Made by a program: the position numbers and the translations under genes | DNA from: Bacilli bacterium | GTDB lineage: Bacteria; Bacillota_I; Bacilli_A; RFN20; CAG-826 | Length of the DNA: 64,000 nt | Assembly: GCA_045222195.1 (NCBI GenBank) | Contig: JBGUXN010000029.1 | Coordinates: 742-64,741, forward strand | Direction: 5' to 3' | Shown: piece by piece, positions 4,910 through 42,752 of the stretch | How the letters are laid out: each line of letters begins with the position of its first letter | Position numbering within the stretch: position 1 is the stretch's first letter | Notes under the pieces: generated by a model | What the model was told of the DNA's origin: nothing | Databases searched by the model: none | What the model saw: the letters and a program-made list of their open reading frames with translations, nothing else

Positions 4910-4923
4910 AAGCGATTCCTCAC

Positions 4924-9828: not shown

Positions 9829-9848
9829 ATGATTTTAGTTTTACAAAA

Positions 9849-12800
9849 CTAATCTTCTTTTCTCTTGGCTAAGATCACACCAAGTCCCATAACGGCAACA
9901 AGTGCCATTAAGGAAGAAGCAGCAACGATACTACCACCACAACCTTTTTTCTTTGGTTTTTCTGGTTCGATGAGCTCAACTTCTGGTGAGTTAGCAAGAA
10001 CGATGAGTTCAAAGCTTCTACCCACTGTTGCAGTGCTATTATCATCAAACTTCAATTCCACTAAGACGTGGATGAACTTATTGAATGTCGCATCTAAAGA
10101 ACCAGTGATGTGGTTGTTAGCAAAGCTGACACCTTCTGGTAATGGAGTGAATGGGTCAATCTTGACGTTGACTTCTTGGATGTTCTTACCATTATAAGAC
10201 CCACCGACTTTGATTTCGCTTGGTAAGGTGACTTCGACATCGATATCTTCACCCGCTCTCACAGCGTATTGTCCCATTTCATTGACACCAGAGAATTCCA
10301 TACCTTCAAGTGGAGTAATGAAGCTGCTGAGATATTTGCTAGAACGGATGTTCATCCAGATGCATTGTTGTGCCATTTTTCTCACTGCGTACCACCATGA
10401 ATATGATTCATATGTATCGCCTTCGTATTTGAAGGTTGGGCAACCGAGTTCAGCATCCCAAGTAGCATTCATATCACCAGTATAACTAGAACCATCTAAT
10501 TGTTGGTTACAGCCAGCGAGGATACGGTTATTGATGTTTTCATAGCAGTTTCTATTATGCGCACCATTGCTATGGTGAGTCATATCGGAAATGATACTAC
10601 CTTTGAAGCCCCATTCTTCTCTTAAAACTTCAGTTAAGAGTGGGTAGCTAGCAGCGGTTTCCATTAAACCTAAACGGTTATAGGAAGACATGATACCTAA
10701 GGATTTACCTTCTTGAATTGGGAGTTGGAAAGCCTTTAAGTAGATTTCACGTAAAGCTTGTTCACTGAGGTAGGCAGAAACGCCTTCTCTTTCTTTTTCT
10801 TGATCGTTAACAGCGAAGTGTTTGAAGTAACTATAAACACCTCTATCAGAAACACCAGCGACCACTCTACCTGCCATACGGCCAGTTAAGAATGGATCAG
10901 CGGAATAGTATTCGAAGTTACGGCCACCGAATGGAGAACGGTGAATGTTGACGCCTGGGCCAGCCCAGCCTTGTGTGCCTTCGATTTTACCTTCCATACC
11001 AACGCAATCGCCTTGTTGTCTAGCTAATTCAACATTGTATGTTGCGGCAACGATTGGGCCAGAGACCCACCAAATGATTTTGAATCTTTGTGGACCATCG
11101 CTATCGCCAGTTGCTTGTTTACCAAAACGAGAAATTGCTGGGTTATGGTTGCTACCACCGGAGACGAATTGAAGCATTTCGCTATATGTCATTTGATCCA
11201 TGAATTCATCCCATCTTGGATCATCCATGTCTGTATTCATGAGGTCAGTGACTTTGATGTTAACTGTACCATTTGTATTTTCCGCTTGTGTCCAACCTAA
11301 TTCTTCGATATCTTCTTTGGTCTTATGAGCGGCTTCAGGAACGTATTCGAATTCAGAATCTTCACCATCTAAATCGTATAAGGTGAATTCGTGAGTTAAG
11401 AATTCTTCCGCACGGCTATCAGCACCCAAGGTTCTATCTTCAATTGTTGGATGGGTTGGGAAGGTTTCTTCGAAATCTTCACGGCTCATTTGTGTGAATT
11501 CAAAGTCATCATCACTTGGTAAAGAGCTATAGAAACCTCTATCAGTGAAACGGTTTTTAACTTCACCACCAGTGAATCTATCAACAGCGTATTGGAGACC
11601 TTTTTCTTGCACTTTGAAATCGACTGTTTCAATTTCTTCGTGAGCGTTTTTACCTAAAACGAGTTGATAATCACCACCATCGAGTTCATAACCGGCAAAG
11701 CCGTTATTATTGGAATCCATAAAGTCGTAGTTAGCGACATCTTGTAAATAGAATTCTAAAGTGACTTCTTGTTCGTCTTGTGGGTCTAAAATATCAGTTT
11801 TAGCAAAAGCACAGAGAACTTTACTAGCTTTTTCAATGCCACCTTTGATATAAGGAGCGCGGAAATATAATTGGACGACTTCTTTACCGGCGACATTACC
11901 AGTATTTTTAACTTTGACTTTAACTTCAACCTTAGTGTCTGGATTAGAAACAGCTTCTTCTGGAAGATTATTGGAAACGATTTCTTGTTCAAATGTTGTG
12001 TAGCTTAAACCATAACCAAATGGATAAACAACACCGCTTTCGCCTTCGTACCATGCATCAGCGGCATTTTCATCTTCCGCTTTCATGTCGTCGTATTTTG
12101 TTTCGTAATAACGATAATCGTAATAAATACCTTCTTCGTAGCTGACATAGGAGCCTGGTTTAACACCGTTTAAGCCACCTTTAACAACAAAGTTCTTTTC
12201 ATCCGCCCAGTTTGGTTTTTCGTGGTCGGTATAGCTCTTATCAGAACCATAGGACATGACTGGATAACCATCAGCGGTAATCATGGTATTTTGCGCAGCA
12301 AAAACTGGTTTGCCATTAGCATCTTCAGTTAAGTTTGTTTGCGCGTTATCAGCGAAGTTTTGCCATGTTGGATCAAGGGTAAAATCTCTCGCCCATGTAT
12401 CAACTGTATGACCTGATGGGTTGACTTGACCAGAGACAATTCTACCTAAAGCACCTGGACCAACGTCACCTGGGTTACCAATCCAAATAACCGCAGAAAC
12501 TTTTGGATCGTCTTCAAAGACACCACATTCAAAAACGTTACTGGAGTTAATGAGCATAATGATGTGGTCGGTGTGTTTATGTAATTCATCAAATAAAGCT
12601 TGTTCGTTATCGGATAGCTCTAAAGCGTGCTTTTCTGTAAAAGCGGCATTATTGTTATCGCGGCAATCGCATGTCTTAAGGTCGCAACCTTCACTACCTT
12701 CACGAGTGATGAGTTGGAAGATGGCGTCACCATAAGTGGACATGGATTCAAGTTCACTTGAGGAATAAGAACTTAATGGAGTTTCACCAATTGTGACTTG

Positions 12801-13241
12801 GGAAACACCTGTCCAACCAGTGTTGCCATTGGTACGGCCATTCCCTGATCGAGAAGAACTATAGAAGCTCTTAAGTGTCGGGTTAACAGTACAACCAACT
12901 TCTGTTAAAGAGGATTCAAGATCGTAAGCGTATGATCTGACGTTTTGGTGAATACCACCCGCACCAGAACCAGAACCACCTCTTAAAAGATCGTTTGTCG
13001 CTTTGCCTGCGAGGGACACTTTTGCGCCTTCGGTTTTCATTGGAAGGAAGCCGTCATTCTTTAAAAGAACGAAACCTTCATCCGCTAACTGGGCGTTAAC
13101 TTTAACAGCGTGCTTGATGTAGTCAGATTGATTATTGGCTTCGCCAAACATTTCGGCGTTAACAGCGTGCGGGCTTTTAGCAAAGCCTAATGGTAGAGCC
13201 ATCGCGGCAAGAAAAATAGGAATAAGAATTCTTTTCTTCAT
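9849..13241 (-). CDS. GH3 beta-glycosidase, secreted, permuted domain order, C-terminal GC-motif/TM/basic tail (tandem paralogue of 6176..9583)
   Basis: 1130 aa. Signal peptide MKKRILIPIFLAAMALPLGFAKSPHAVNA. Motifs: FVLLKNDGFLPM, YPFGYGLSYTTF, VKVKNTGNVAGKEVVQLY, NIHRSPFGGRNFEYYSADP, KHFAVNDQE, WGFKGSIISD. Ends KKKGCGGS-TM-KRKED. Confidence 0.9.
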   Translation of the reverse strand: MKKRILIPIFLAAMALPLGFAKSPHAVNAEMFGEANNQSDYIKHAVKVNAQLADEGFVLLKNDGFLPMKTEGAKVSLAGKATNDLLRGGSGSGAGGIHQNVRSYAYDLESSLTEVGCTVNPTLKSFYSSSRSGNGRTNGNTGWTGVSQVTIGETPLSSYSSSELESMSTYGDAIFQLITREGSEGCDLKTCDCRDNNNAAFTEKHALELSDNEQALFDELHKHTDHIIMLINSSNVFECGVFEDDPKVSAVIWIGNPGDVGPGALGRIVSGQVNPSGHTVDTWARDFTLDPTWQNFADNAQTNLTEDANGKPVFAAQNTMITADGYPVMSYGSDKSYTDHEKPNWADEKNFVVKGGLNGVKPGSYVSYEEGIYYDYRYYETKYDDMKAEDENAADAWYEGESGVVYPFGYGLSYTTFEQEIVSNNLPEEAVSNPDTKVEVKVKVKNTGNVAGKEVVQLYFRAPYIKGGIEKASKVLCAFAKTDILDPQDEQEVTLEFYLQDVANYDFMDSNNNGFAGYELDGGDYQLVLGKNAHEEIETVDFKVQEKGLQYAVDRFTGGEVKNRFTDRGFYSSLPSDDDFEFTQMSREDFEETFPTHPTIEDRTLGADSRAEEFLTHEFTLYDLDGEDSEFEYVPEAAHKTKEDIEELGWTQAENTNGTVNIKVTDLMNTDMDDPRWDEFMDQMTYSEMLQFVSGGSNHNPAISRFGKQATGDSDGPQRFKIIWWVSGPIVAATYNVELARQQGDCVGMEGKIEGTQGWAGPGVNIHRSPFGGRNFEYYSADPFLTGRMAGRVVAGVSDRGVYSYFKHFAVNDQEKEREGVSAYLSEQALREIYLKAFQLPIQEGKSLGIMSSYNRLGLMETAASYPLLTEVLREEWGFKGSIISDMTHHSNGAHNRNCYENINNRILAGCNQQLDGSSYTGDMNATWDAELGCPTFKYEGDTYESYSWWYAVRKMAQQCIWMNIRSSKYLSSFITPLEGMEFSGVNEMGQYAVRAGEDIDVEVTLPSEIKVGGSYNGKNIQEVNVKIDPFTPLPEGVSFANNHITGSLDATFNKFIHVLVELKFDDNSTATVGRSFELIVLANSPEVELIEPEKPKKKGCGGSIVAASSLMALVAVMGLGVILAKRKED
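9852..9953 (-). other. C-terminal tripartite sorting-signal-like segment (KKKGCGGS / hydrophobic helix / KRKED)
   Basis: The last 34 aa are KKKGCGGSIVAASSLMALVAVMGLGVILAKRKED. Confidence 0.5.
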
Positions 13242-13413
13242 ATGTTTTTCCTTTCTAAGAAAAACGCCTAATTTGTCTCGTACGAGTACGCATTCAAAAA
13301 AGATAATTGAATTAATTATGTGCGTTTCCTTATATTTACATTATACATTTTAAATAAATTTAATCTTTATTTTATATGATAAATATGCGTTTTCTGTAAC
13401 ATTATGTATCTAG

Positions 13414-13441
13414 TTGCATATATGAATTTTTCTTATATAAT
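13414..13441 (+). promoter_or_regulatory. Sigma-70-type promoter for ssrA
   Basis: TTGCAT (13414-13419), a 16-nt spacer, then TATAAT (13436-13441), about 20 nt before the mature 5' GGGG. Confidence 0.5.
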
Positions 13442-13462
13442 AGATATGCTTTTAAGCAGCAT

Positions 13463-13853
13463 GGGGTTGAATAGTTTCGACAGCGATGTGCTTAGCTTTA
13501 GCTGCAGCGGCCGGTAACCTTAAACCAAAACTAAAAATAACTGCCAACAGTTATATGAGAGCTCCTAGAGCTCAATCTCTCTGCTTAGCATAGTTCTACC
13601 CGACATAGGGACCGACCAATAGGGCCGGACAGAGCATCCTCCAAGGTTTTCTCCTTTCACGCTTGGTCAGGGTGTCATACCAAAAGGATAGGGAAAGAGA
13701 GTGGACTTGTTACTCTTACCGAAACTTAGTAAGTCTCGCGTAAACTAGTGAGTCAATATACGACCTTACGTTAAAATCTAAAATATTGTCTAAGCTGTAG
13801 ACGCTTCTGCGGGTAATCGTTGGACGCCGGTGCGATACCGACCAGCTCCACCA
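13463..13853 (+). ncRNA. ssrA: tmRNA (transfer-messenger RNA)
   Basis: The 5' end GGGGTTGAATAGTTTCGAC pairs with the 3' end CAGCTCCACCA, forming the acceptor stem with the G3:U wobble. The tRNA-like 3' end is GGACGCCGGTGCGATACCGACCAGCTCCACCA. The resume context AAAAATAACT-GCC matches the E. coli-type AAAAAUAGUC-GCA context. Length is 391 nt. Confidence 0.92.
13543..13593 (+). other. tmRNA tag reading frame: (A)ANSYMRAPRAQSLCLA-stop
   Basis: GCC AAC AGT TAT ATG AGA GCT CCT AGA GCT CAA TCT CTC TGC TTA GCA TAG, starting 81 nt from the 5' end. Confidence 0.65.
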
Positions 13854-13864
13854 CTCGATAACTA

Positions 13865-13890
13865 CTCTGGGAAACCGGAGTTTTTATTTT
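13865..13890 (+). terminator. ssrA terminator
   Basis: CTCTGG-gaaa-CCGGAG followed by TTTTTATTTT, immediately after the CCA end. Confidence 0.6.
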
Positions 13891-13900
13891 ATAAACAAAA

Positions 13901-13928
13901 AACTTCCGCCCAACTTACGGAAGTTTTA
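13901..13928. terminator. Second, bidirectional hairpin terminator
   Basis: AACTTCCG-cccaactta-CGGAAGTT flanked by an A-run and a T-run. Confidence 0.5.
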
Positions 13929-14093
13929 GTTTAATCGCTTTTAAAAGGAGATTATAGCGATTTGATCCAAGATTTAACTTGGAGGTGAGAAGGAAATTTG
14001 TAAATCAATCAAGATTTACGCCCTCTATTATGCCGAAATAAATTGATACAATCATTTATTTTCGTGCTTTTTTTGTATAGACAAGTTTGCGTA

Positions 14094-14124
14094 GAAAAAA
14101 GGCCAACCCATTATGAGTTGACCT
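14094..14124 (-). terminator. Terminator of the GH3/membrane-protein operon
   Basis: Minus strand AGGTCAAC-tcataatgg-GTTGGCCT followed by TTTTTTC, after the stop at 14152. Confidence 0.6.
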
Positions 14125-14151
14125 AATTTATAAGTTTTAGTCTAAGACTAA

Positions 14152-15558
14152 CTATTCAGTGACTGTGACGGTAATCTTAGCTTCGAAGCCATTCCATTTT
14201 GCGGTGACTTCATATTCACCAGCTTCAGTAAAGGCTTGTCCATCTTTGATACCTGTACCATCAGTCCAACTGACTTCACTAGCTTTAAAGACAGCGGAGT
14301 AATTCAAGTTCTTTAAGATACGGTCAGCAACCCAACCAGATCTATCGAACACTTCACCGACTTTGAATTCAGTACCTGTGCTAGATGGGTCAATCGCTAA
14401 AGCGACTTCTGGATAGTACATATAACCGGCGATTTCCATGGAACGTGTGCCCCAAGAGAAGCCGAGGTAGATGTGAGCACGCCAATCATAGAAGCCACTT
14501 GCAGGTTCGAAGTTAATGAATTCGTATTTAGAGACGTTACCAACTAAGTTGAGGCAGTCTTTAGATTCATCAACATCTTCTGTGGCTGGATCATCAGCAG
14601 GAGCGTCTTTAGAAGAGTTATACCAGAAACCTCTAATGTCTGTACCACCGATTCTACCACCATAGATACCATCTTCCCAAAGGTAGATGCTACCATATGT
14701 TTCACTATAGTCACCTTGATAGCCTTCAGCGTATGCGCCTTCAAAGACGTAGACGAGATTATGACCAGCACGAGTACCGCTTTGTGTTGGAACACCACTC
14801 ACCGCGGAGAAATCAGTATATTCATCTTGTTCTTCGATGAAAACTGCTGTTGGATCAAAGTCATATTCGTAAGCATCAGCGACTGATTTAATATCGTCGG
14901 TGATTGGATCAAATTGTGGTTCATCTGGGATTGGCTCTTCGCTACTAGAAGGAGCGACACTTTTACCAGAAGCATTTTTCTTCACTAAGTCAGCAGAGAC
15001 TAAGGAAGAAACCAAGATAGCGGCTAAGACAAGAGCGCCAGCGCCACCAATTTTAGCTAAGTTAACAACACCTTCAACTTTCTTCATGTCAGCTTTTGCT
15101 TCGTCTTCTTTTTTGTAGAAGCCTAAGAAAGCGACAACGACAGAAACGATAAAGATGATGAAAATCATGATGAAATAGAAGAAGTTGAGACCAACGTGAC
15201 CACCATTATACATAACCTTATTAGCAATACCGGCAAAGAAGTCAGCAATGACAACAACATCTTTCATAAATGCTAAGCCAATCATGACGACAGCGGCAAT
15301 TTGAAGGAATCTATATTGAGGAACGATTAGAACGGCGATTTCCACTGCGGCACCCGCTAAGAGGAAAATACCGATTGTTTCAACGACTAAGCCTTCGGCT
15401 TTATTACCCATTGTTGGAGTATCTTCAACGCCTGGGAAGGCTGGGCTCTTATATGTTAAGAAGAAGAAGATGCCCATGAATAAAGATAGAAGTGCAACAC
15501 CGGCGGCAATATAGTAACCGACAGATTTGTTTTTAAAGAAATTTAAAATCTTTTCCAT
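14152..15558 (-). CDS. Polytopic membrane protein (about 5 TM) with a large extracytoplasmic C-terminal domain; function unknown
   Basis: 468 aa with a strong RBS AAGGAGGT. It starts 18 nt after the GH3 stop. The N-terminal half is hydrophobic. A Ser/Pro/Glu linker follows. The acidic, aromatic-rich C-terminal domain ends in an Ig-like strand pattern (EYEVTAKWNGFEAKITVTV). Confidence 0.7.
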   Translation of the reverse strand: MEKILNFFKNKSVGYYIAAGVALLSLFMGIFFFLTYKSPAFPGVEDTPTMGNKAEGLVVETIGIFLLAGAAVEIAVLIVPQYRFLQIAAVVMIGLAFMKDVVVIADFFAGIANKVMYNGGHVGLNFFYFIMIFIIFIVSVVVAFLGFYKKEDEAKADMKKVEGVVNLAKIGGAGALVLAAILVSSLVSADLVKKNASGKSVAPSSSEEPIPDEPQFDPITDDIKSVADAYEYDFDPTAVFIEEQDEYTDFSAVSGVPTQSGTRAGHNLVYVFEGAYAEGYQGDYSETYGSIYLWEDGIYGGRIGGTDIRGFWYNSSKDAPADDPATEDVDESKDCLNLVGNVSKYEFINFEPASGFYDWRAHIYLGFSWGTRSMEIAGYMYYPEVALAIDPSSTGTEFKVGEVFDRSGWVADRILKNLNYSAVFKASEVSWTDGTGIKDGQAFTEAGEYEVTAKWNGFEAKITVTVTE

Positions 15559-15575
15559 ACTATGTTACCTCCTTT

Positions 15576-18500
15576 CTATTCAGCACTCACAGGTTCGGAG
15601 TTATCATTTTCTCCACCTGCTTTAGCGCCTTTTAATGACATGATTTCGAAGAAGGCATAGACACCGACTAAGATAGCGGCGATACCAGCACTACCGATGA
15701 CAATACCAGTCACGGCTTTCTTCCACCATGGATTTAATTGTTCAGCGATTTCTTCTTCGCTGACTGGGGCGACACCACCCATCCAAGATCTGCTCATCGC
15801 ATACATGATGTATTTGTTGGCTCTTTGTAAATCTTGTAAGAGGGCACCATCGTGTTTACTTGTAATCCAGTCTCTTAATTGGCCACCACGGTTACCGTCT
15901 AAGCAGAATAAGTCGGTACCACTATGGAGCATGGCTGGACCATTGGAGTAGTTAGATGTATTACTACCTGTTAAAGCATCGTCAATAATTTGACCTCTAT
16001 ATTTCCATTCACCTCTCATGACGTTCATCATTAATGGTTCATGACATGCGGCGTATCTAACACCGATTCTGTTATAAGAAGTCATAATACCTAAGCCGTG
16101 GCCTTTAGTTAAAGCGCCTTCGAATGGCTTTAAGTAGATTTCTCTAAGAGCTTGTTCATTACAGAATGTAGCAACACCTTGTCTACCACTTTCTTGGTTA
16201 TTTAAGAAGCAGTGTTTAATATTCATGATTAAACCTTTTCTTCTTGCTTCACCAACAATGTTAGCGGCGACATTGTAATTTAAAATAGCGTCTTCAGACA
16301 TATATTCGGAAGCACGGCTACCATATGGGGTTCTATTAATATTGGCACCTGGAGCGTTAACACAAGCCACACCACAGAATAAAGCGTCTTCACCATAGAA
16401 ACCACCAAATTTCTTTTGCATTTCGTGATCCCATGTACCTGTATATGTTGGGCCAGTTGGGAAACCAGTAGCCCATCTCTTATCACCGTATTGGTATTTG
16501 CTTAATAAGCCTTCTGGACCTTCGGCAACGGAGTTACCTGGTTTCATAACTTTCTTAACAGCTAAGATACCACGGTTATCACTGACGGAGATGACTAAGT
16601 CATTTAAGTTCATTTGAGAAATGAATCTATCCCAAACATCCGCACCATTTTCACCAAAGAATCTGCTATCGGCGTCTTCAACTTTACCATCTAATGGAAC
16701 ATTAGCCATTTCGTTGAAGGTAATCTTGTCATCGCCTAAATCGACGTTATAGACATCACCATCGCCATCTTCATATCTTGGAGCATCGGCAGGAACGTCT
16801 TTATAGTAGTTAGACATATCTCTTTCCGCACTTGGTGCTGGGTTACTTGTTGTAGCGGTTGGCCATGTGGTATCCCAGTGTTGTCTATCTAAGTAAGTGA
16901 TGCCACCGGATTTACCATCATCGTGATTCTTTTCACCGACGAACCAGTTATAATCAGCGTCATCAAATTGGTTGACAACATCAACGCTTGGATCGTAGTG
17001 AGATTTTCTATAGGTAATTGGATCATCGTCAAATTCTAAGGTCTTGACGCAAGCGTCATTACCGATATAGGTTTCACCATTGTGGTCATATAATTGAGCA
17101 CTTGGTTCTTTAACGGAAATGATGTTATTTAAAGCTTCGTGAGCACCATTACCGACAGCAAAATAATATTCGCCACCTTCTAAGATATAGGTTTTATTAA
17201 TCTTGTAGTCGTATGTGGTTAAGAAATATTTATCGAAGGAGAGTTTAACTTTTTCAGTCTTGCCCGCTGCGACATCTTTCTTTTCATATGCCATTAAAGC
17301 AATTGCGGATTTACCTAAACCGTTTTCTTTATCGAAATCAGTATATGGAGCTTGGACATATAATTGTACAGAGGCTTTGCCATCCATCTCACCAACGTTT
17401 TTGACTTCGACTTCCGCTTCGATTGTATCGTTTTCTTTATTTTCCTTTAAGGAAACGATTCTTTGTTCAAAATTGGTATAGCTTAAACCAAAGCCGAATG
17501 GATAACCCATTTCTTCAGCGTAGTTCCAAGAACCACCTGTGGATTTATAAATACCTTTATTGCTATCAGCATTGCCTTGATTGAGGACTAAGTCTTCATA
17601 TCTAGTTTCATAGTATTTATAACCAACATAGACGCCTTCTTTATAGACGACGACTTGGCTGTTACCAAAGTTTTGATAAGCGGCACTGCTGGAAGCAGAA
17701 GCAGCGAATGTATCTGGAGCGTGACCAGAAGCATTGACAACTTTACCTTCGGCATCTTTGCCCATTAAAACGTGAACGATACCACCGGCACCATAATAGC
17801 CAGGAACACCCATATAAACACAGGCGTCAATGCCATATTGTTCATCGTTAACCCAGTCAGTAGACATCGCTAATGGGGAGTTGATTAAGACGATAACCTT
17901 TTTGAATGTACCGTTATCTTTGTACTGTTTAACTAATTTTAAAAGATTAGCTTCGTCATTCTTAAGATCGAGTTGACCGGCACCTGGGTCGGTATTTTCT
18001 GTACCGATACGGACAAATGTAATAATAGCAGCGTCACCATATTCAGCTTTAATTGCGCTTTCTTTGGTTTCACTGTACCTTTCAACATTTGTTCCAGGAG
18101 AAGTCATGCTGCCTTCGTTAGAATAACCATTGAAGAGTTCTCTGTTGATCTCGAAACCATTTGCTTCAAAAGCGGCATCGAGCTTCACAACTAAGTTGTT
18201 GTTTGGCGCAGCACCACCGGCACCAGAACGCATGAATAAGTTCTTGCTACCACGACCTAAGAGGGTGACTTTTCTTTCATTTTCTTTTAATGGAAGGGCG
18301 TCGTTATCGTTTTTAAATAAAACAGAACCTTGTTCGACAGCTTCTTCACAGAATTTGTAAGAATCTTTGATCATCTTTTTCCAACCAGAGTTGGATAAAG
18401 AACCATCTTCTGCTGCGTAGGCTGAACCTTCGACTTCATCGGAATCGATTTTGTCGATTTTTTGTGTGGATAGACCTAAAGCGTCATTGATAAGACCTTC

Positions 18501-34192: not shown

Positions 34193-34222
34193 TAAAAAAG
34201 CCCCTCGTTTAACGAAGGGCTC
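34193..34222 (-). terminator. Terminator ending the sipW/amylase operon
   Basis: Minus strand GAGCCCTTCG-ttaaa-CGAGGGGCT followed by TTTTTT. Confidence 0.7.
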
Positions 34223-34236
34223 AAACTTGTTATTTA

Positions 34237-35178
34237 TTAGGCAAGTTGGAAATAGATTTGGTCTTCACCGTATTTAAGCTTGATGTAGATGGATTCAACA
34301 TTGAAGTCTTGTAAGACGGTGTATGTATGAGTGGAATAGTTATGAGAAATATAAGCTTTCCAGTTCGTGGATTCAGAATTACCACCGAATGACCATGGAT
34401 CGATATCAACTGTCCAACCAGCATTATTTTCAAAGTCATAGAGTTGGAAGACTTGGTCTTTGGCAAAACTTCTATGATTGATCAAGTGTTGTTGGAAACC
34501 GTTATCATCATTTGTTCTAACCGCGGCCATATAAGATTCATCAGAGAACTTAAAGCCAAAACCTGATGTTGGTAAAGCACCAGTACTTGATGGGGTGTAT
34601 TCGCCTGGAGTTGGAGGGACAACTTCACCGCCACCGCCATGGTTACCACCGCCTTGGCCACCACCTTTACCGCCAGTAAATGAGGCATAAAGGATTTTAT
34701 TTTGATAGCCAGGAGCTTTTAAGTATTCAGTGAGCTTGCCATCATTGTTATAAGCAACCCAACACACAAAGTGTGAACCTTCAACAGAGGAAGTGACTTC
34801 GTCATTTGGTAATAAGTCACCGACTTTTGCACTGAATTCCACAGTGTGTTCTAAGAACATTGATTCAATCTTAGTGTTAACTGGATTACCTTTATATAAG
34901 CCATATTCACCAAAGACTAAATAGACTTTGACTTCTGTGCCCGCTGGTAATTCATCGCTTGGAATGACAGGATCACTGCTTGGTTGAGGAGCGACACTAG
35001 AACTTGGCTCAACATTGCTACTTGGAGTGACTTCACCACTACTTGGTGTCACTTCTGAACTTTGCTCAGCATCAGAAGAAGATTTCTTACCTGGTTTACC
35101 TTGACCGTTATATTTCACACAGCCACTAATTGAAGTAAGGATGAGAGGGATTAAAACGAGTAAAACTTTCTTTTTCAT
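34237..35178 (-). CDS. Lipoprotein with an S/P linker, Flg_new-like domain, poly-Gly tract and an unknown C-terminal beta domain
   Basis: ATG 35178 (RBS AGGAGG 8 nt upstream). Lipobox LTSISG-C. Gly-rich tract GGKGGGQGGGNHGGGGE. The last about 110 aa are aromatic-rich. Confidence 0.7.
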   Translation of the reverse strand: MKKKVLLVLIPLILTSISGCVKYNGQGKPGKKSSSDAEQSSEVTPSSGEVTPSSNVEPSSSVAPQPSSDPVIPSDELPAGTEVKVYLVFGEYGLYKGNPVNTKIESMFLEHTVEFSAKVGDLLPNDEVTSSVEGSHFVCWVAYNNDGKLTEYLKAPGYQNKILYASFTGGKGGGQGGGNHGGGGEVVPPTPGEYTPSSTGALPTSGFGFKFSDESYMAAVRTNDDNGFQQHLINHRSFAKDQVFQLYDFENNAGWTVDIDPWSFGGNSESTNWKAYISHNYSTHTYTVLQDFNVESIYIKLKYGEDQIYFQLA

Positions 35179-35190: not shown

Positions 35191-37767
35191 CTATTTCTTG
35201 AATACCGATACGGACCATTTTACCGCACCGATATCGCCGCCAGCATTACTTGGCGCACCACCCATGGTTTTGACATTAGAGTAGCCAGAACCTGGATTCA
35301 TTAAATAACTACCAGTACCAATACCAACGTTAATGTAAATCTTAAGCGATTCATTGTTACTGCCGTAGACATCTAAGACTAAGACTGTGCCACCACTGGA
35401 ATTATCAAAGTTGAGCTTAGCGCCCTTTGGATAAAGTTTCTTAATTGCGATTAAGTCTTTATACCAGTTATACATGGAGTTAGGGTCAGCTTTTTGAGTT
35501 TCAGCGTCTGCTAAGGTCTTATTGTAGCTATCTAATTCAAATTTATAAGCACCAGACTTATAGTCTGCTCTAATTGATGTATCTTTCCATAAGAATGGTT
35601 GACGATACCAGATATCTTCGCAGTTTTCTGAGCCATACATACTAACGTGTTGATCAGTATTAGAGGACATACCGAGTTCATCACCATAATAGATCCAAGA
35701 GACACCTGGATTTAATAAAGTGACAGCAGCATGAATCTTGGCTTTATTCACTTGATCACCTTGGCCAGTGACTTTGTTTAAAGCGGTTGTGCCCGCTAAG
35801 GTACCACTACCATTGACTTGGTTAATAGCACGCATAACGTCATGGTTGGAAGTGAAGGCACCATCGATGAAGTCTGGTCTAGAACCACCCATAATGCTAT
35901 ATGGATTCTTACCATCATCGACCAAGACGTTATTGCTTGTGGAGAATGTATCAAATGTTTCTGCTGCTTGCTTTGTAGCGAAGTGAGCAGGTGTACCGCC
36001 ATCTGTATATAAGAAGGCAGGAATATGATAGTAAGTTGAGAAACTGAACTGTGAATCAAGAGCTTGATAGTAAGAAGCAGTACGTGTGCCCCAACCATCG
36101 AAGTTTTCACCCACTAAGAAGCAATTTGGATAATCGGCTTTGACACCATGAGCGAATTCTTTCCACCACATGATGTTCTTTGTTAAGTTAGAGGAATAGT
36201 CAAAGCCTTTAGTAACATAGATACCCTTTTCATCATCGTAGGACTCTTTACTACCAACGTCTTGAACGATAATATCGCCGTTTTGATAGCATTCATCTCT
36301 CATGAAGATGTGCTTGACTGCGTCAAGACGGAAGCCATCTAAACCAAAGCTCATCCAGTATTTAGCCATATCGATGACTAATTTTCTTGTTGAAGCGTTG
36401 AGATAATTAATTTCAGGCATACCACTACCGAATTTACCGTAGTAATAGTAATGAGATTCACCATCTCTATACCATGATGGGTTAGAGCTTTCAGCATCTT
36501 CTTTAACGGTGATCTTTTTATAACTGTTTGTGGATGGATCATATTTTTCAATGATGTCACTTTCAAACTTCCAGTTATAAATATCTCTCCAGTTAATGTC
36601 TGTATCTTGTTTAGCCCATTGAGAATTGGAGAACCAAACATTACCTTTGGATGTATGGTTAAGGACTAAGTCCATGAGGACTTTCATGCCACTTTCGTGG
36701 GCTTTGTATAATAATTCACGATAATCATCGACAGTACCAAATCTCTTATCTACTGCGTAGTAATCGGAAATATCATAACCGTGATAAGAATCGGATTTTT
36801 GGATTGGTGTTAACCATAAGACTTGGACACCTAAATCCGCTAAATATGGTAAAGCATCAATGATACCTCTAATATCACCAATACCATCGCCGTTACTATC
36901 TCTAAAGGAAGCGACAAAGATTTGATAGCCAGCACCTAATGATTTAAATGAATCAGAAGTAGAACTAACGCCTAAGGCATTGGAATATTGCGCATCGACA
37001 TCACTTCTATAATTACCAGTGGTATCTTCATCAATTGGATTGGTTTTGGCTTGTGGGACACCACTACCAGCGTAATAGGCATAGTCATATAAAGCACCAG
37101 TAGAAACGAAGACGTGGATGGCTTTACCACCGGTCACATCTCTCCAGTTCTTGGCTTCACTAATATCATCTAAGTATGTTTCTCTACCACCATCGGAAAC
37201 CCAGTTAGTAGCACCGCTCATTGAGCTTTGTTGTGGAAGTAAGAAACCGATTTCTTCCATACCTTCAAATGTGGTTGGAGTACCGGTTTTACCACCCTTT
37301 AAATTAGCAGCATATAAGTCAACATCAGCGATTGCGCCATAATCATCAACATACGTTGAGGTGCCTTCTTTACCAACTTCCGCAGCGGTCATCCAGTGAT
37401 TGCTCATTGGAGAAAGAGTTAATTTATCGCTAACTTTTGGATTAGCAGAGAATGCCCATAGGGAACCTTCTAAATCTTGTGGGGAATGTTGCCATAACCA
37501 AAGGCAGTAGTTTTCATAACCGCCTTTATCACCTCTATTGTAATGGAAATATAAGTGATTTGGTTGGCTCCAGGAATTTAACCAGGCATCATATTCATCA
37601 ACATCATCAACTGGTGTAATGCTTGATTCACCTTGACCCTGAGAATCACTAGTTTGGCTTGTATCACCACTTGGGGCACCGCTTTTTTCACTAGTGCTAC
37701 CATTGTGCATAACACAGCCCGTCACTAAGAGGGGCAACAAAAGGAAAATGACTGTTCTTTTTTTCAT
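35191..37767 (-). CDS. GH13 alpha-amylase-family enzyme, lipoprotein, with an N-terminal CBM41/PUD-like module
   Basis: ATG 37767 (MKKRTVIFLLLPLLVTG-C). N-terminal HLYFHYNRGDKGGYENYCLWLWQ. GH13 regions: GDGIGDIRG, I VLMDLVLNHTS, II GLDGFRLDAVKHI, III FLVGENFD, IV FTSNHDV. Confidence 0.9.
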   Translation of the reverse strand: MKKRTVIFLLLPLLVTGCVMHNGSTSEKSGAPSGDTSQTSDSQGQGESSITPVDDVDEYDAWLNSWSQPNHLYFHYNRGDKGGYENYCLWLWQHSPQDLEGSLWAFSANPKVSDKLTLSPMSNHWMTAAEVGKEGTSTYVDDYGAIADVDLYAANLKGGKTGTPTTFEGMEEIGFLLPQQSSMSGATNWVSDGGRETYLDDISEAKNWRDVTGGKAIHVFVSTGALYDYAYYAGSGVPQAKTNPIDEDTTGNYRSDVDAQYSNALGVSSTSDSFKSLGAGYQIFVASFRDSNGDGIGDIRGIIDALPYLADLGVQVLWLTPIQKSDSYHGYDISDYYAVDKRFGTVDDYRELLYKAHESGMKVLMDLVLNHTSKGNVWFSNSQWAKQDTDINWRDIYNWKFESDIIEKYDPSTNSYKKITVKEDAESSNPSWYRDGESHYYYYGKFGSGMPEINYLNASTRKLVIDMAKYWMSFGLDGFRLDAVKHIFMRDECYQNGDIIVQDVGSKESYDDEKGIYVTKGFDYSSNLTKNIMWWKEFAHGVKADYPNCFLVGENFDGWGTRTASYYQALDSQFSFSTYYHIPAFLYTDGGTPAHFATKQAAETFDTFSTSNNVLVDDGKNPYSIMGGSRPDFIDGAFTSNHDVMRAINQVNGSGTLAGTTALNKVTGQGDQVNKAKIHAAVTLLNPGVSWIYYGDELGMSSNTDQHVSMYGSENCEDIWYRQPFLWKDTSIRADYKSGAYKFELDSYNKTLADAETQKADPNSMYNWYKDLIAIKKLYPKGAKLNFDNSSGGTVLVLDVYGSNNESLKIYINVGIGTGSYLMNPGSGYSNVKTMGGAPSNAGGDIGAVKWSVSVFKK

Positions 37768-37872: not shown

Positions 37873-39900
37873 CTACGCTTGTGCAACGTATCCGTCAATA
37901 AAGATTTCTCTAATGTGTTCTAATGTATGTTCTGAGATGCCAAAAGACATCAAATGATTCTTCATCTTATCAGCGAAATTATCACCGCTTAAAGCTTCTG
38001 TTTTAGAGATCCACTGTGGAAATTCAGCATCGTTTTCAGTCAGTTTAACAGTTCTACCTTGTGTGAACTGTGTCCAGACATAGTCTCTAGTCATATCTTG
38101 AATGCTAACACCCAATAAGGATTCTAAGAAGAATGAAGCAATGCCAGTACGGTCCGCACCATAGGTACAGTGTAATAAGGCTGGGTTAATATCACAGTTT
38201 GCGATTGTATTAAAAATAGTCACATATTGATTAGCAATATTTGTGCCACTATAAGTGCCACCTTCCCAGCGTACTGGTTCTGAGCCAGAAGGAATTGAGG
38301 CTTTAACTAAAGTTACTGGCCATGCAGCAGTATTAGCAGGAGATTGACTTGGCACATTAGCGCTATCTCTTAAATCGATATCAACTTTAATACCTAATTC
38401 TTTAATCGCGGCTAAACCTTTGCCCTCGTTATCAAGTTCGCTTCTTGTAGAAGAATAACCGGATTGATTTAATTGAGCGCATCTAAAGTAGAGGCCTTGT
38501 TTAATCTTTTGACCAGGCACTAAATATGTATTCCAACCACCGATATCACGGAAGTTTAAAACGTTAGGAACTTTAACAACACGTGGCGCTAAAGAAGTAG
38601 ATGTAGATGTTCTAATTTCAGCGGAAGCTAAACCATCTTCACTAGTTGCGGCACGATAGTAATATGTAGTGTTTAATTTAGCGTTCCATAATTCGTAGTA
38701 TGTGACGGTGGCTGTATTAATTGGAGCACTATTAAGAGCGCTTTCACTTTCTGCTACTTGAACGTAATATGTACCTCTACCAGCAAGGTCATCAAATCTC
38801 AATTTCATGGCTGAAGGAGCGGATAAATCGCTACCATCTGCATATGTTTTATAGTTTTCAATGTGATTATCATGGAGGAATTGATATTGATTTAAGTTAT
38901 GGAAATCATTATCAGGTACTTCATTCACACTTAATGGATCAACTGGATTCCATGTGGCTAAGTTACTTGACCAATTATCTTGCCAGGAACTCCAAGAGTT
39001 CATGCATAAAAGTGTGGAATCTTTAGAATAGTTTGTGCCATCTGCCCAAGAAGAACCTGAGAATGAGAAATCAGCGGATTGATTGCCCCACGTAAATGCA
39101 GATGCAGTAGATGAATATCTAGAGAATTTGAAATTGTTATAGTCCGCTGGGATATAGGTATATAAGGCATCGCTAGAAGAAACACCCATATGAATGGAGG
39201 TATTGTTATCTCCTTGCCAAGCATAAATACCAAAACTACTACCAGTACCATCCCAGTCAGCAGCCCAATAGCTATTTGGTTTGAAACCAATCTTTCTTTG
39301 AACAATAGCAGCGCCTTCATTTTCAATGAATTTATAAATACCCGAAGCGGTATGAAGGCTTCTAGAATCATTCCAAGAAGCACTGACATCTAAGACACCA
39401 TCAAGGCCTAAATAACGATAACCAATCAAAGTTTGTCCGATAGTATTTGTTTCTAAAACAACATCAGTATTTACTTCGTAATAGTTGGAATTAACATAGA
39501 CTTTTTTAGATGATGATTTAAAGATTGGATAGTATGTGGCGTCACTAGAAATGGTTAATTCCGCTAACTGCTCGTTTGTATAGTCAATCGCATAGCTTTC
39601 TGATGTCGGAGCGGAAGTTTTCCAACCTTGGAAATCATAGCCCTCCAAACTTAATGCAGGAATATCACCCGAATCAATAGACTCACCATTATCTACTTGA
39701 ACCACAACAGGTGTTTGCCAGCCACTATCGTATTCGGTATAGAATGTGACATTATTTCTTAATGGACTGACACGAATTTGAACGCCAAAAGAATTAGCGT
39801 TATCAGTAACACCGTACGCAGCAAATACACTACCTGCTGATAAACCAGCGGCTAGTAAAGCAACAAGGCTGAAAATAACGACTTTGCTACGCTTGCTCAT
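37873..39900 (-). CDS. Exported multidomain protein: SipW-cognate-type signal peptide, Flg_new repeat, CBM25/26-like module, Fn3-like module, C-terminal CX5R phosphatase (Y_phosphatase3 type)
   Basis: The track ORF starts at 39975. I prefer ATG 39900 (RBS AGAGGAGA, 14-nt overlap with the sipW-like gene). N-terminus MSKRSKVVIFSLVALLAAGLSAGSVFAAYGVTDNANSF. Other motifs: GYDFQGW...YYPIF and FGIYAWQGDNN...YNNFKFSR. Phosphatase motifs: NFRDIGGW, GLYFRC, IDLRD, and the P-loop LLHCTYGADRTG (38149-38172). Confidence 0.8.
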   Translation of the reverse strand: MSKRSKVVIFSLVALLAAGLSAGSVFAAYGVTDNANSFGVQIRVSPLRNNVTFYTEYDSGWQTPVVVQVDNGESIDSGDIPALSLEGYDFQGWKTSAPTSESYAIDYTNEQLAELTISSDATYYPIFKSSSKKVYVNSNYYEVNTDVVLETNTIGQTLIGYRYLGLDGVLDVSASWNDSRSLHTASGIYKFIENEGAAIVQRKIGFKPNSYWAADWDGTGSSFGIYAWQGDNNTSIHMGVSSSDALYTYIPADYNNFKFSRYSSTASAFTWGNQSADFSFSGSSWADGTNYSKDSTLLCMNSWSSWQDNWSSNLATWNPVDPLSVNEVPDNDFHNLNQYQFLHDNHIENYKTYADGSDLSAPSAMKLRFDDLAGRGTYYVQVAESESALNSAPINTATVTYYELWNAKLNTTYYYRAATSEDGLASAEIRTSTSTSLAPRVVKVPNVLNFRDIGGWNTYLVPGQKIKQGLYFRCAQLNQSGYSSTRSELDNEGKGLAAIKELGIKVDIDLRDSANVPSQSPANTAAWPVTLVKASIPSGSEPVRWEGGTYSGTNIANQYVTIFNTIANCDINPALLHCTYGADRTGIASFFLESLLGVSIQDMTRDYVWTQFTQGRTVKLTENDAEFPQWISKTEALSGDNFADKMKNHLMSFGISEHTLEHIREIFIDGYVAQA
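39787..39900 (-). other. SipW-cognate (TasA/camelysin-type) signal peptide
   Basis: MSKRSKVVIFSLVALLAAGLSAGSVFAAYGVTDNANSF. The G-x-x-F-A-A-Y-x-V-T-D core resembles the GGT(F/W)A-x-F-x-D core of Bacillus TasA/TapA/CalY signals. Confidence 0.6.
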
Positions 39901-40933
39901 TATTCGTTGTCTCCTCTTGCTTTGGTTCTTCTGGCTTTTCTTCTGGTTGTTCTGGGTCTTTTTTCTTTTTATCAAATAAGAGCCAATAAGCTACTGGAAT
40001 TAGGCATAAGCCTAAAATCATAATTGTACCCCATGGTGAAGATAAGAAACGGATTGGATAACCAAGTTTAGGAACTACATTTACAACTTTGGCTTTTAAG
40101 TCTTTTCTTTGATACCAACCATCGTCGGTATTAGCTTTATCACCACGAATCAAATATCTTTCATCGATATTGAACATGTATTTGTTATCTTCGTCAGCTT
40201 GTTTAACAATATCGTTATTAACTAAGATCTCGTTTTTACCACCACTGAGTTTGACATATTCAAAATAGGTGTTGTATTCGTAATTCTTTTTAGTAATGGA
40301 GAACTTGGCGGGGCTCATTGATTCCCTATGATATGTAATAACGTTTTTATAGTACCCGTTAGCTTCTTTTGAACTAGAAATAGTTGGTTCAATAGATGCA
40401 CTAGCGACGTTGAAGTAATATTCATCCACATCAAATTCATTTTGGGTATAGGCAACGATTTCTACATCGGTGAAAATGTAAGAATTTTCTAAATAGACTT
40501 GAGAAGATGGAGAAACAAACTTAAATGTTGTAACATCACCAATCTTTTCTTCTTGTAAATCAGTTAAATCAAATGTATCGCCACGACGATCAATGTCGAC
40601 GATACGGTGCATATCGGTGCCGATACTTGGATTATCAAAGATAACAACGTCTAAAACATTCAATTTTGTTTTATCAGTGATTCTTTTTGATACCACAAAA
40701 TCAAATGCTTGTATTTGCTTAGTGTCTTTTAAGAATTCTTCGTACTTTTCATTCTTCTTTGACATCGAATCAGTCAAAACGACATCATAACGAGTGTTGA
40801 AGACATAGAAAGGTGTTTTAGTAAACTTATAAATAAGTTCAACGGCAACGAAAACAAATAATCCGCCGACTAAAACATAACCAATAATTCTACCGACCTT
40901 TTTAGCGCGTTTACCGGCTTTTTCTTTTTTCAT
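39887..40933 (-). CDS. sipW: Signal peptidase I, ER/archaeal (SipW) type, with a large insertion between the His box and the GD box
   Basis: 348 aa. N-terminal TM IIGYVLVGGLFVFVAVELI. Boxes in order: VVLTDS56MSK, LDVVIFDN, DMH109RIVDI, RGD265KANTDDGW, VVPKLGYPIRFLSSPWG. A C-terminal TM TIMILGLCLIPVAYWLLF is followed by a K/E/P-rich tail. Confidence 0.8.
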   Translation of the reverse strand: MKKEKAGKRAKKVGRIIGYVLVGGLFVFVAVELIYKFTKTPFYVFNTRYDVVLTDSMSKKNEKYEEFLKDTKQIQAFDFVVSKRITDKTKLNVLDVVIFDNPSIGTDMHRIVDIDRRGDTFDLTDLQEEKIGDVTTFKFVSPSSQVYLENSYIFTDVEIVAYTQNEFDVDEYYFNVASASIEPTISSSKEANGYYKNVITYHRESMSPAKFSITKKNYEYNTYFEYVKLSGGKNEILVNNDIVKQADEDNKYMFNIDERYLIRGDKANTDDGWYQRKDLKAKVVNVVPKLGYPIRFLSSPWGTIMILGLCLIPVAYWLLFDKKKKDPEQPEEKPEEPKQEETTNNEQA

Positions 40934-40945: not shown

Positions 40946-40969
40946 GAGGGGCAGGAGACCCTACCCCTC
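40946..40969 (-). promoter_or_regulatory. GC-rich 10-bp hairpin between the 386-aa gene and the sipW-like gene (possible attenuator or mRNA-stability element)
   Basis: Minus strand GAGGGGTAGG-gtct-CCTGCCCCTC followed by TTTCCCTT. It sits 17 nt after the upstream stop and 12 nt before the sipW ATG, which has no SD. Confidence 0.5.
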
Positions 40970-40986: not shown

Positions 40987-42147
40987 TTAAGCGTGGGCTT
41001 TGCAGAAAATATGGATGCCGTTATTGAGTGTTGGGTTGAAGAAGAAATCGTAGTGATTTGCTTCACCGATAACAATGTTCGCGCAACCATTTTCGTGACT
41101 GCTTTCACCATACCAAACGTTGTCTGTGCTAACGACTTTAAGTTCTGTGCCAGCAGCAATTTCAACGTTTTCAATCTTGAATGTGTAATCGAAATCGTTT
41201 TCTTCGTCACCATTTCTATCGAGACTACCTTCGGAGGCAACGAGTTTATTGGCTTCGACCATCATCCATTCGTTGAATGTACCAACGAGATAGAAGTCAA
41301 CTTCTGCATCGAGATCTGGAGCAGCCACCCATGCATCATGGTAGTATGGGTTGCTTGGATCAATTGTTAAGTCTGTTGTTTGAGAACCATTGTTGTTGGA
41401 GAAAATGATCATATCGAAGTTAACGTCTAAAGCGATGGAATAGATGTCATCTTTGACTTGTGTCATTTCAGCACCTGGGAATTCGGCGTTGCTAGCCATT
41501 GTGGAAGAATTCCAAGCATAGGCATAAACGTGAGACCAGCTCATTTTGTTCCAGAAATAATAAGTTCTTGAAGTAACTTCTTCAATACCTGAACCCTTAT
41601 TCCAGTCAACTGTTAATGTAACAACGTCGTTCTTAATCTGGTTATAGACTGCTGGATTTAAAGTGCCGTCTAACGCGACATAGAAATAAACCATTTTTTC
41701 TACACCACTGTTAACAACGATGTCTTTTGCCACTGTGTAATTAGCAGAACCATCTGGGACTGTTAATAATGGATCACCTGTTTTTGTGTTGTTGTCATAA
41801 ACATTAACAGATAAGTAGTTGATAAGTTTTTCTTCACCTGTGGCAGTTGTTTCAAGCTTAACAAGTAAGCTACCTGTGAAAGCAGAAGCATCAGATGTTG
41901 TGGCTCTTAAACCAAGGGCATATGGGCCTTTTTCTTCACCAACTGATAAGCTTTCAATGTTGATTAAGCCTTTTGTACCCCAATCGAGAGTAACGGACTT
42001 ATCATCGCCAATTTCAACTGCTTCTGGAGTAATTGTCACGGAGAATGGATCAGCATTATCTGTGACAGCCCAAGCTGCGAATGTTCCACCGACGAGTAAA
42101 GCGGCTGCGACGACGGAACCTAAGAAAAATAGAGATTTTCCTTTCAT
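40987..42147 (-). CDS. Exported protein: SipW-cognate-type signal peptide, about 160-aa possible TasA/camelysin-like domain, CBM25/26-like starch-binding module, second CBM20/48-like module
   Basis: 386 aa with RBS AGGAAGGT. N-terminus MKGKSLFFLGSVVAAALLVGGTFAAWAVTDNADPF. aa 193-275: YYFWNKMSWSHVYAYAWNS...EFPGAEMT...DMIIFSNNNGSQTTDL. aa 283-386: FYLVGTFNEW...AGTELKVVSTDNVWYG. Confidence 0.75.
   Translation of the reverse strand: MKGKSLFFLGSVVAAALLVGGTFAAWAVTDNADPFSVTITPEAVEIGDDKSVTLDWGTKGLINIESLSVGEEKGPYALGLRATTSDASAFTGSLLVKLETTATGEEKLINYLSVNVYDNNTKTGDPLLTVPDGSANYTVAKDIVVNSGVEKMVYFYVALDGTLNPAVYNQIKNDVVTLTVDWNKGSGIEEVTSRTYYFWNKMSWSHVYAYAWNSSTMASNAEFPGAEMTQVKDDIYSIALDVNFDMIIFSNNNGSQTTDLTIDPSNPYYHDAWVAAPDLDAEVDFYLVGTFNEWMMVEANKLVASEGSLDRNGDEENDFDYTFKIENVEIAAGTELKVVSTDNVWYGESSHENGCANIVIGEANHYDFFFNPTLNNGIHIFCKAHA
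42043..42147 (-). other. SipW-cognate (TasA/camelysin-type) signal peptide
   Basis: MKGKSLFFLGSVVAAALLVGGTFAAWAVTDNADPF. Confidence 0.6.
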
Positions 42148-42296
42148 AGTTTTACCTTCCTTTTTAAAGAAAATTACCTAGTACACAAAAGAATGTAGTT
42201 ATTACTAAACTTCAGTGTATCTAGAGGATATTTAGCAATATCCATTTGCAATATAATTATATATTGTTTTATAAAACGTTAATAAATATTTTAGTA

Positions 42297-42326
42297 AATT
42301 TAAAAAGACTGCCATTTGACAGTCTT
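42297..42326 (-). terminator. Terminator ending the pullulanase/ABC operon
   Basis: Minus strand AAGACTG-tcaaatgg-CAGTCTT followed by TTTAAATTT. Confidence 0.55.
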
Positions 42327-42347
42327 TATAAGTGATGAATGTCAGGA

Positions 42348-42752
42348 TTAGCCTTTCACTACTTCTTCGTCTTCTTTTTCTTTAGCTTTCTCGGCGTGTT
42401 TTAAGATTAAACCAAACGCGACGAGAGTGGCCATACTTAAGACGTAAGCCGGAATAGCTGTCCCCTTGTATTTAGCGGAGTTCGCATCTGTTTCGTTAAT
42501 GAAATAGGTGAGAACTTCATCCCAATACACCGCTGCGTCATGATATTTGCTTGATTCATCAGTTAAAGCGTTCTCATCGGCTTTAATGAGTTCGGTGTAT
42601 TTGTTATCCGCCATTAGTTGGTTAGAGATGGAGGCTTGGTATTTAGCTTTTTCAAATTGAGAAATAGTAAATAGACCCAAAGCTAAAACAGCACAGCCAC
42701 CTAATATGGCGGTATAAGCCATTAATCTTTTAGTCTTTTTCTGTAATGCCAT
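42348..42752 (-). CDS. Small 2-TM membrane protein, function unknown, last gene of the ABC operon
   Basis: 134 aa with RBS AAGGAGGT. TM helices are at aa 12-32 and 103-123, with a helical external loop between them. Confidence 0.6.
   Translation of the reverse strand: MALQKKTKRLMAYTAILGGCAVLALGLFTISQFEKAKYQASISNQLMADNKYTELIKADENALTDESSKYHDAAVYWDEVLTYFINETDANSAKYKGTAIPAYVLSMATLVAFGLILKHAEKAKEKEDEEVVKG

Follow-up and report, generated by a model that had tools for sequence, protein, structure and literature searches.

TasA-type fibres are known as scaffolds of biofilm matrices. In the Bacillus subtilis operon tapA-sipW-tasA, the peptidase SipW removes the signal peptide, so that residue 28 becomes the mature N-terminus of TasA; residues 28-38, right after the cut, form the donor strand, and TapA, whose N-terminus resembles the TasA donor, has been suggested to provide the initial donor strand (PMC9674648). 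Here, a 386-amino acid (aa) protein is described that is encoded at positions 40987-42147 of a 64,000-nucleotide (nt) stretch of contig JBGUXN010000029.1 (the window) from a Bacilli bacterium (assembly GCA_045222195.1). The protein carries a TasA-like domain followed by two starch-binding modules. It is probably the major subunit of a donor-strand-assembled fibre that would follow the TasA/TapA/SipW principle and grip starch at multiple points.

Like that of B. subtilis, the locus pairs a candidate major subunit with a SipW-type peptidase of its own and with a further substrate that shares the N-terminal segment of the subunit. The signal of the window protein ends in VGGTFAAW and that of TasA in GGGTWAAF, the shared segment directly follows the expected cut, and the jelly-roll of the TasA fibre (8aur) is the best structural match in the PDB. 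In contrast to TasA, the window protein has no match to PF12389, and its sequence resembles that of TasA in the signal region only; it also carries two C-terminal starch-binding modules, of which TasA has none. The system also differs from that of B. subtilis in a 146-aa insert within the peptidase, in acceptor-only candidate membrane anchors of relatives, and in its setting, which is an evidently wall-less host and starch catabolism rather than a biofilm matrix.

Other described systems share single traits with the locus. SipW-linked TasA-like subunits of the Bsa type were reported as widespread; those of the BsaA/BsaB/BsaC/SipW system have been modelled to polymerise by insertion of a disordered N-terminal loop into the adjoining subunit, and the Clostridium perfringens BsaA polymer is locked by an isopeptide bond between N35 and K74, with E56 as the catalyst (PMC11580942). 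BsaA differs in that it has no carbohydrate-binding modules (CBMs), and its N-E-K triad is not conserved in the family of the window protein. Archaeal bundling pili (AbpA, 7ueg), cannulae (9h8b) and threads (7pnb), all of them donor-strand-complemented filaments, are among the second- to fifth-ranked kinds of structural match, but they have no CBM payload and are processed by other enzymes. The closest sequence relatives of the first starch-binding module are found in Sas6 and Amy16 of Ruminococcus bromii (7uwu, 9qf9), which serve this gut Firmicute in starch adherence as non-catalytic or accessory proteins; the R. bromii amylosome uses a cohesin-dockerin scaffold and a cell-wall anchor, whereas the scaffold of the window protein would be the TasA-like domain. 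The C-terminal module is predicted to be of the same type as those of SusE and SusF from Bacteroides thetaiotaomicron (4fe9), which likewise bind starch at the surface without being enzymes and whose genes belong to a starch-utilisation locus, but which are Gram-negative outer-membrane lipoproteins and not predicted to polymerise.

Domain architecture of the window protein

The open reading frame (ORF) at 40987-42147 had been proposed from the sequence alone without mention of its strand. It was confirmed on the minus strand, and every motif quoted in that original prediction was found in the translation (MSWSHVYAYAW, FPGAEM, IIFSN, QTTDL, FYLVGTFNEW, AGTELKVV and WYG). The predicted lack of a C-terminal membrane anchor also holds, as the protein ends in IHIFCKAHA and has no hydrophobic C-terminus. 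The gene and its parts are as follows:

42154-42163, minus strand: Shine-Dalgarno (SD) sequence AAAGGAAGGT, 6 nt upstream of the ATG, predicted pairing -9.7 kcal/mol
40987-42147, minus strand: whole ORF including the stop codon, 386 aa, proposed as the major subunit of a TasA-like fibre that would bind starch
42076-42147, minus strand: signal peptide, aa 1 to about 24-27 (MKGKSLFFLGSVVAAALLVGGTFA/AWA/V, slashes marking the possible cuts), cleavage site placed by analogy with TasA
42019-42075, minus strand: putative N-terminal donor strand, aa 25-43 (AWAVTDNADPFSVTITPEA), assigned from conservation and from disorder in both structural models
41578-42018, minus strand: predicted TasA-fold beta-sandwich (jelly-roll) domain, aa 44-190, from AlphaFold2 (AF2) and Foldseek
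41323-41571, minus strand: CBM26 starch-binding module, aa 193-275, from Pfam, PDB profile matches and Foldseek
40990-41301, minus strand: predicted SusE/SusF-type starch-binding domain, aa 283-386, from profile matches

The full-length AF2 model (predicted local distance difference test score, pLDDT, 84.9) consists of three beta-rich domains and has disordered residues 1-41. Since this three-domain architecture diluted the Foldseek search with the whole model (TM-score <0.25), the N-terminal domain was refolded alone as aa 27-192 with 29 homologues as input. The resulting model (pLDDT 84.2, predicted TM-score 0.76, first approximately 20 residues disordered) had the TasA fibre 8aur_A as its best PDB match (E=7.3e-4, probability 1.00, TMq 0.52), in agreement with the TasA/camelysin-like domain that had been suspected in this region. 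It was followed by the Pyrobaculum bundling pilus 7ueg (probability 0.99), the Pyrodictium cannulae 9h8b, FimG and the Sulfolobus thread 7pnb, with less specific jelly-rolls, among them viral capsid proteins and integrin domains, ranking in between. The leading matches are subunits of donor-strand-complemented filaments, to which the modelled domain is moderately similar at the level of the fold only. No Pfam, NCBIfam or PDB sequence model matched the domain; the sole match of a PDB sequence search, Cag10 (E=0.029), lies at chance level and was rejected as a clue to its identity.

Homologues of the protein are only approximately 30% identical overall, and conservation is highest at the end of the signal peptide and in the mature N-terminus, where the pattern VGGTFAAWAVTDNADPF-x-[VI]-x-[VI]-[ST]-P is almost invariant. 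VGGTFAAWA is near-invariant in the family alignment and its FAAWA motif fits the -3/-1 rule; by analogy with TasA (GGGTWA/AFND), cleavage would be expected near A24-V28. Conservation runs for approximately 15 residues beyond any plausible cut in an alternating F-x-V-x-I pattern, with V28, D30 and A32 invariant and N31 nearly so, and both models show the first approximately 15 residues of the mature protein as disordered (pLDDT <50). When the family was aligned with 30 true TasA/CalY proteins by hhalign (probability 83%, E=8.7e-6), only the signal peptide and the first strands were covered, the family stretch LVGGTFAAWAVTDNADPF being aligned with LVGGGTWAAFND of the TasA family. The reading of the signal as SipW-type is upheld; the signal region aligns with the cleaved TasA signal, and the gene next door encodes a SipW-type peptidase. 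The conserved charged or amide positions of the N-terminal domain are limited to D30, N31, D33 and D181, and no Lys or Glu is conserved. As a matter of speculation, these four residues might bind a cation, as in the archaeal relatives.

A CBM25 or CBM26 module had been predicted at aa 193-275, and the Pfam model of CBM26 (PF16738, gathering cut-off 28.1 bits) indeed matched aa 197-261 with 49.1 bits (E=6.6e-13) as well as 50 of the 52 aligned family members. In a search of PDB sequences, the family profile matched R. bromii Amy16 (2e-23) and Sas6 (7.8e-10), in each case at the CBM26 module, and Foldseek matched the region to 2c3h with a probability of 1.0. Conserved residues that are candidates for the binding site are Y210, W212, the aromatic residue at position 223, Q256 and D259; position 223, which is F in the window protein, is W in 38, F in eight and Y in six of the 52 members.

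The C-terminal module (aa 283-386) had been described as a starch-binding domain of the CBM20/48 class. The starch-binding type stands as a prediction and the class does not, since neither the CBM20 nor the CBM48 model matched the protein at E<=1 or any of 52 relatives at E<=0.05. Judged by profile matches, the module is a predicted starch-binding domain of the SusE/SusF type. The family profile matched SusF of B. thetaiotaomicron (4fe9) over aa 287-343 (E=8.5e-4), and PF16411 (SusF_SusE) matched four of the 52 members (best 1.9e-6) and two further relatives, the window protein alone remaining below the threshold; PF26120 (CBM_1st_SusF) is present as a precomputed annotation on some homologues. 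W294 and K337 are found in all 52 members and W345, Y346, N357 and Y366 are conserved too, which makes these six residues candidates for the binding site. Three more ORFs with SusF-like domains akin to this module are present elsewhere in the same genome, on contigs C11 (19532-22021), C6 (15094-16125) and C2 (28409-29638).

Peptidase, donor-only and acceptor-only proteins

A total of 108 homologues of the window protein were collected, and metagenomes contain about 100 that are full-length. The N-terminal domain profile, searched against 1.84 billion representatives, retrieved at least 150 proteins, each standing for a cluster at 50% identity. The architecture of the window protein (TasA-like domain, CBM26 and SusF-like domain) was found in 89 of 146 representatives, and some others repeat the C-terminal domain. 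The family size and its strong conservation are more than chance would produce. In four proteins (P0232, P0196, P0225 and L011:6473-8752) the catalytic domain of a GH13 alpha-amylase is fused to the donor segment, the TasA-like domain and CBM26.

Two genes downstream of the subunit gene provide the putative partners of the protein:

39887-40933, minus strand: SipW-type (S26B) signal peptidase, 348 aa, with N- and C-terminal transmembrane segments and a 146-aa extracellular insert
37873-39900, minus strand: donor-only partner, putative TapA analogue, 675 aa, with a Flg_new-like repeat and a Y_phosphatase3 domain

The 675-aa protein shares the signal and the N-terminal segment of the subunit (AAYGVTDNANSFGVQIRV) and has no TasA-like domain; it matches only the first approximately 25 positions of the N-terminal domain profile. 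The motif VTDNA[DN]xF occurs in only two genes of the genome, and these two flank the peptidase gene. The Y_phosphatase3 domain is intact, and through this protein a fibre end could be equipped with a phosphatase, for which phosphorylated starch is a possible substrate. At every locus examined, the subunit gene adjoins both a SipW-type peptidase and such a donor-only protein, with signal and segment but without the fold. Nine distinct loci of this kind were found: in addition to the window, these are L001, L002, L003, L005, L009, L011, L012 and L014.

The reverse arrangement was found as well. At least 13 representatives are acceptor-only proteins, in which a lipobox or transmembrane segment is followed by a linker, made of Big_2 repeats or of Ser-rich sequence with low complexity, and the TasA-like fold; the fold begins after the donor segment, at profile position ~10-23, and ends at the last residue of the protein. 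The following were listed:

L005:12089-13096, L014:8001-8540 and L001:8678-9511: acceptor-only proteins, each encoded by the fourth gene of its operon
P0181, P0191, P0193, P0204, P0210, P0218, P0222, P0231 and P0235: further acceptor-only proteins

These proteins may serve to anchor the fibre in the membrane or to terminate it. If a polymer were built by strand exchange, with polarity, a cap and a membrane anchor, it would require donor-plus-acceptor, donor-only and acceptor-only proteins, and it is this comparative genomic pattern that gives the strongest argument for polymerisation.

The peptidase itself carries S56, H109, D265 and D271, which are invariant across 10 orthologues, and a peptidase with an intact Ser/His/Asp set adjoins the subunit gene at every locus examined. 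The match of the 348-aa window peptidase to the NCBIfam SipW model is weak. Orthologues without the insert match this model at 1.3e-10 (positions 4-180 of 189) and the archaeal-type signal peptidase I model TIGR02228 at 1e-9, in neither case reaching the trusted cut-off, and a PDB sequence search with the peptidase profile gave nothing meaningful. The 146-aa insert is beta-rich, is encoded at 40154-40597 on the minus strand and lies between the His box and the GD box. It is kept in most orthologues and is absent from the peptidases of locus L003 and the same-genus genome G004 and from one copy in L004. That the insert is a hidden acceptor domain was rejected at the sequence level (hhalign against the TasA-like domain, probability 0.95%). 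On the metagenomic contig L011 (ena:ERZ28653738 scaffold_458), four genes for insert-bearing SipW-type peptidases lie within 3809-15901, each paired with a different subunit or donor-only gene, in a multi-cassette array.

Proposed polymerisation and the alternatives to it

In the proposed mechanism, the precursor would be exported by Sec and cleaved near A24-V28 by the adjacent SipW-type peptidase. The freed segment AWAVTDNADPFSVTITP would then act as a donor beta-strand and fill in the TasA-fold sandwich (aa 44-190) of the next subunit, so that a linear polymer would arise. As each subunit would project one CBM26 and one SusE/F-type module, the polymer could hold on to starch at many points. 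The 675-aa protein, with its donor segment and no acceptor fold, would nucleate or cap one fibre end in the manner of TapA and carry its phosphatase at the tip, and in some relatives an acceptor-only lipoprotein or transmembrane protein would take up the last free donor strand and thereby tether the fibre to the membrane.

Several observations speak against such a polymer. The TM-score to TasA is only 0.52, and beta-sandwiches match many folds. All true TasA homologues carry PF12389 (TasA/camelysin, Peptidase_M73), which had no match to the window protein in hmmscan at E<=1, and the mature N-terminal domain without its signal peptide reached a probability of only 1.8% against the TasA alignment. 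What the original prediction called TasA/camelysin-like is therefore borne out by the modelled fold and the genomic context and not by membership in the sequence family; the protein is best described as TasA-like in these two respects rather than as a demonstrated TasA family member. The NCBIfam model of SipW-cognate signal peptides, presumably TIGR04088, matched neither the full protein nor its 57-aa N-terminus at E<=10, and the conserved N-terminal segment could be just the recognition determinant of a dedicated peptidase. A genome search and a filter-free hmmsearch of all six-frame ORFs of the assembly (77% complete) returned the window protein only and no acceptor-only anchor gene, and no acceptor-only gene was found in the syntenic relatives L012 and L013 either. 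The SD sequence is average and gives no sign of high abundance. It had been called the strongest ribosome-binding site, but at -9.7 kcal/mol it ranks 15th among 37 window genes and is surpassed by that of the 315-aa lipoprotein gene of the same operon (-12.1 kcal/mol), so that the argument for abundance drawn from it fails. The reading of the protein as a structural subunit, with a TasA-like domain behind a SipW-type signal and with two starch-binding modules, is supported.

Some of these points are what would be expected of the main alternative, a monomeric starch binder, secreted or surface-associated like Sas6 or SusE/F, in which the N-terminal domain is a spacer or a third binding domain, the N-terminus serves peptidase recognition or sorting, and no polymer is formed. 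Such a protein would explain the missing sequence similarity between the mature N-terminal domain and TasA, would fit the low TM-score and the lack of an anchor gene in this genome, and would account for the CBM26 and the SusE/F-like domain being the only parts with family matches at the sequence level. It leaves unexplained why conservation extends approximately 15 residues past the plausible cut and why it alternates as F-x-V-x-I. Tethered proteins that consist of the fold minus the segment, and partner proteins that consist of the segment without the fold, are likewise hard to explain unless segment and fold interact, and the leading structural matches are strand-exchange filaments. A monomer is considered rather unlikely on these grounds. 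A single starch-binding molecule could also be held in the membrane by an uncleaved N-terminal hydrophobic segment, as a type-II membrane protein. Other enzymes of the locus are membrane-tethered lipoproteins, and the BsaA model includes a transient tether by an uncleaved signal peptide (PMC11580942), but a peptidase with intact catalytic residues encoded beside the gene at all examined loci, the fit of FAAWA to the -3/-1 rule and the alignment of the signal region with the cleaved TasA signal make this arrangement very improbable. Donor-strand exchange might also be followed by an intermolecular Asn-Lys isopeptide bond, as in the covalently locked BsaA polymer. D30 is invariant and N31 nearly so within the donor segment, and BsaA uses N35 of its donor strand (PMC11580942); with the N-E-K triad absent and neither Lys nor Glu conserved in the N-terminal domain, a covalent lock is very unlikely and the least to be expected of these alternatives.

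If the donor-strand polymer is adopted as the preferred reading, TasA-type assembly appears to be used here as a display scaffold for CBMs and, in relatives, for amylases. A full-text literature search for TasA or SipW together with CBM or starch returned no paper linking them in this sense. What would be new here is a fibre of the TasA/TapA/SipW type that carries carbohydrate-binding modules and enzymes as its payload and has dedicated membrane anchors. This would add a third mode of polysaccharide capture at the surface of gut bacteria of the Firmicutes type, beside cohesin-dockerin cellulosomes or amylosomes and sortase-anchored enzymes, in uncultured, wall-less lineages with small genomes whose surface biology is essentially unknown. 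From the sets of donor-only, donor-plus-acceptor and acceptor-only genes it can be predicted how the fibre would be polarised, nucleated and anchored, in a form that lends itself to direct tests, and the modular design could serve as a self-assembling protein scaffold.

The starch locus and its host lineage

The genes of the locus all lie on the minus strand and are given here in the order of transcription, together with the hairpins between them:

Minus strand, first gene: pullulanase-like protein, 1049 aa, with CBM48
Minus strand, next: lipoprotein, 142 aa
Minus strand, next: solute-binding protein, two permeases and a MalK-type ATPase
42348-42752, minus strand: 134-aa protein with two transmembrane segments, last gene of the maltodextrin transporter operon, followed by a terminator
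42304-42327, minus strand: terminator-like hairpin closing the transporter operon
40987-42147, minus strand: subunit gene, followed by a hairpin
40946-40969, minus strand: 10-bp GC-rich hairpin with a weak T tail, between subunit and peptidase genes
39887-40933 and 37873-39900, minus strand: peptidase and 675-aa protein (see above)
35191-37767, minus strand: GH13 alpha-amylase lipoprotein, in the transcription unit of the subunit gene
34237-35178, minus strand: Gly-rich lipoprotein, 315 aa, last gene before the terminator at 34198-34222

Judged from its gene content, this is a starch or maltodextrin utilisation locus. The lipoprotein amylase and the 142-aa and 315-aa lipoproteins of the window are not TasA-like. 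The gene for the 134-aa protein with two transmembrane segments is kept in L012 and G004 too.

As the upstream operon is closed by the hairpin at 42304-42327, the subunit gene opens a transcription unit of its own, which ends at the clean terminator at 34198-34222. The GC-rich hairpin that had been predicted after the gene was located at 40969-40946, 17 nt past the stop codon, and is a candidate partial terminator or attenuator. The peptidase gene directly downstream has no SD sequence (+1.0 kcal/mol), which would fit attenuated read-through from a subunit gene that may be abundantly expressed.

The assembly comprises 1.45 Mb and is 77% complete, and its named relatives are metagenome-assembled genomes of uncultured Erysipelotrichaceae, Bacilli and Coprobacillus. 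Searches of the genus, covering 23 genomes (G000-G022), found neither sortase (PF04203) nor the transpeptidase of penicillin-binding proteins (PF00905), while both were present in control genomes; the genus is therefore evidently wall-less. The absence of a wall would explain why the enzymes of the locus are lipoproteins and makes a membrane-based fibre plausible as a surface scaffold. Because the genus lacks both cell wall and sortase, the fibre could be the means of holding starch granules at the cell surface, near the lipoprotein amylase, the pullulanase and the maltodextrin ATP-binding cassette (ABC) importer of the locus. A more far-reaching picture, to be taken as tentative and with some doubt, is that of gut Bacilli without a wall that build a filamentous "amylosome", a heteropolymeric donor-strand-exchange fibre. 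Its interchangeable subunits would carry CBMs or GH13 amylases, an enzyme-bearing donor-only protein (here with a cysteine phosphatase that might dephosphorylate starch) would be its starter or cap, and an acceptor-only lipoprotein would be its terminator and membrane tether; the fibre would replace both cohesin-dockerin scaffolding and sortase anchoring in polysaccharide capture.

The N-terminal domain profile (A3) matched two of 61 genomes in a survey that included 60 relatives; as it misses diverged cassettes, this count is no evidence of rarity. In G004, a genome of the same genus, the same position, flanked by the gene for the protein with two transmembrane segments and the GH13 amylase gene, is occupied by a different and diverged SipW/TasA-like/CBM cassette (locus L016, G004:C5:82000-96500, 8113-11348), with a gene order that differs from that of the window. 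The cassette encodes a 194-aa protein with a TasA-like domain only and a canonical 274-aa SipW without insert. Its ~304-aa protein was unscored by the profile; by eye the C-terminus resembles a SusF-type CBM, and the N-terminal part was assumed to be TasA-like. A 277-aa protein begins with a donor-like motif specific to this cassette, followed by modules that look like CBMs by eye. The G004 cassette points to rapid turnover of cassettes at a fixed functional position. Elsewhere in the window, a tmRNA gene was found on the plus strand at 13463-13853, with the tag peptide ANSYMRAPRAQSLCLA.

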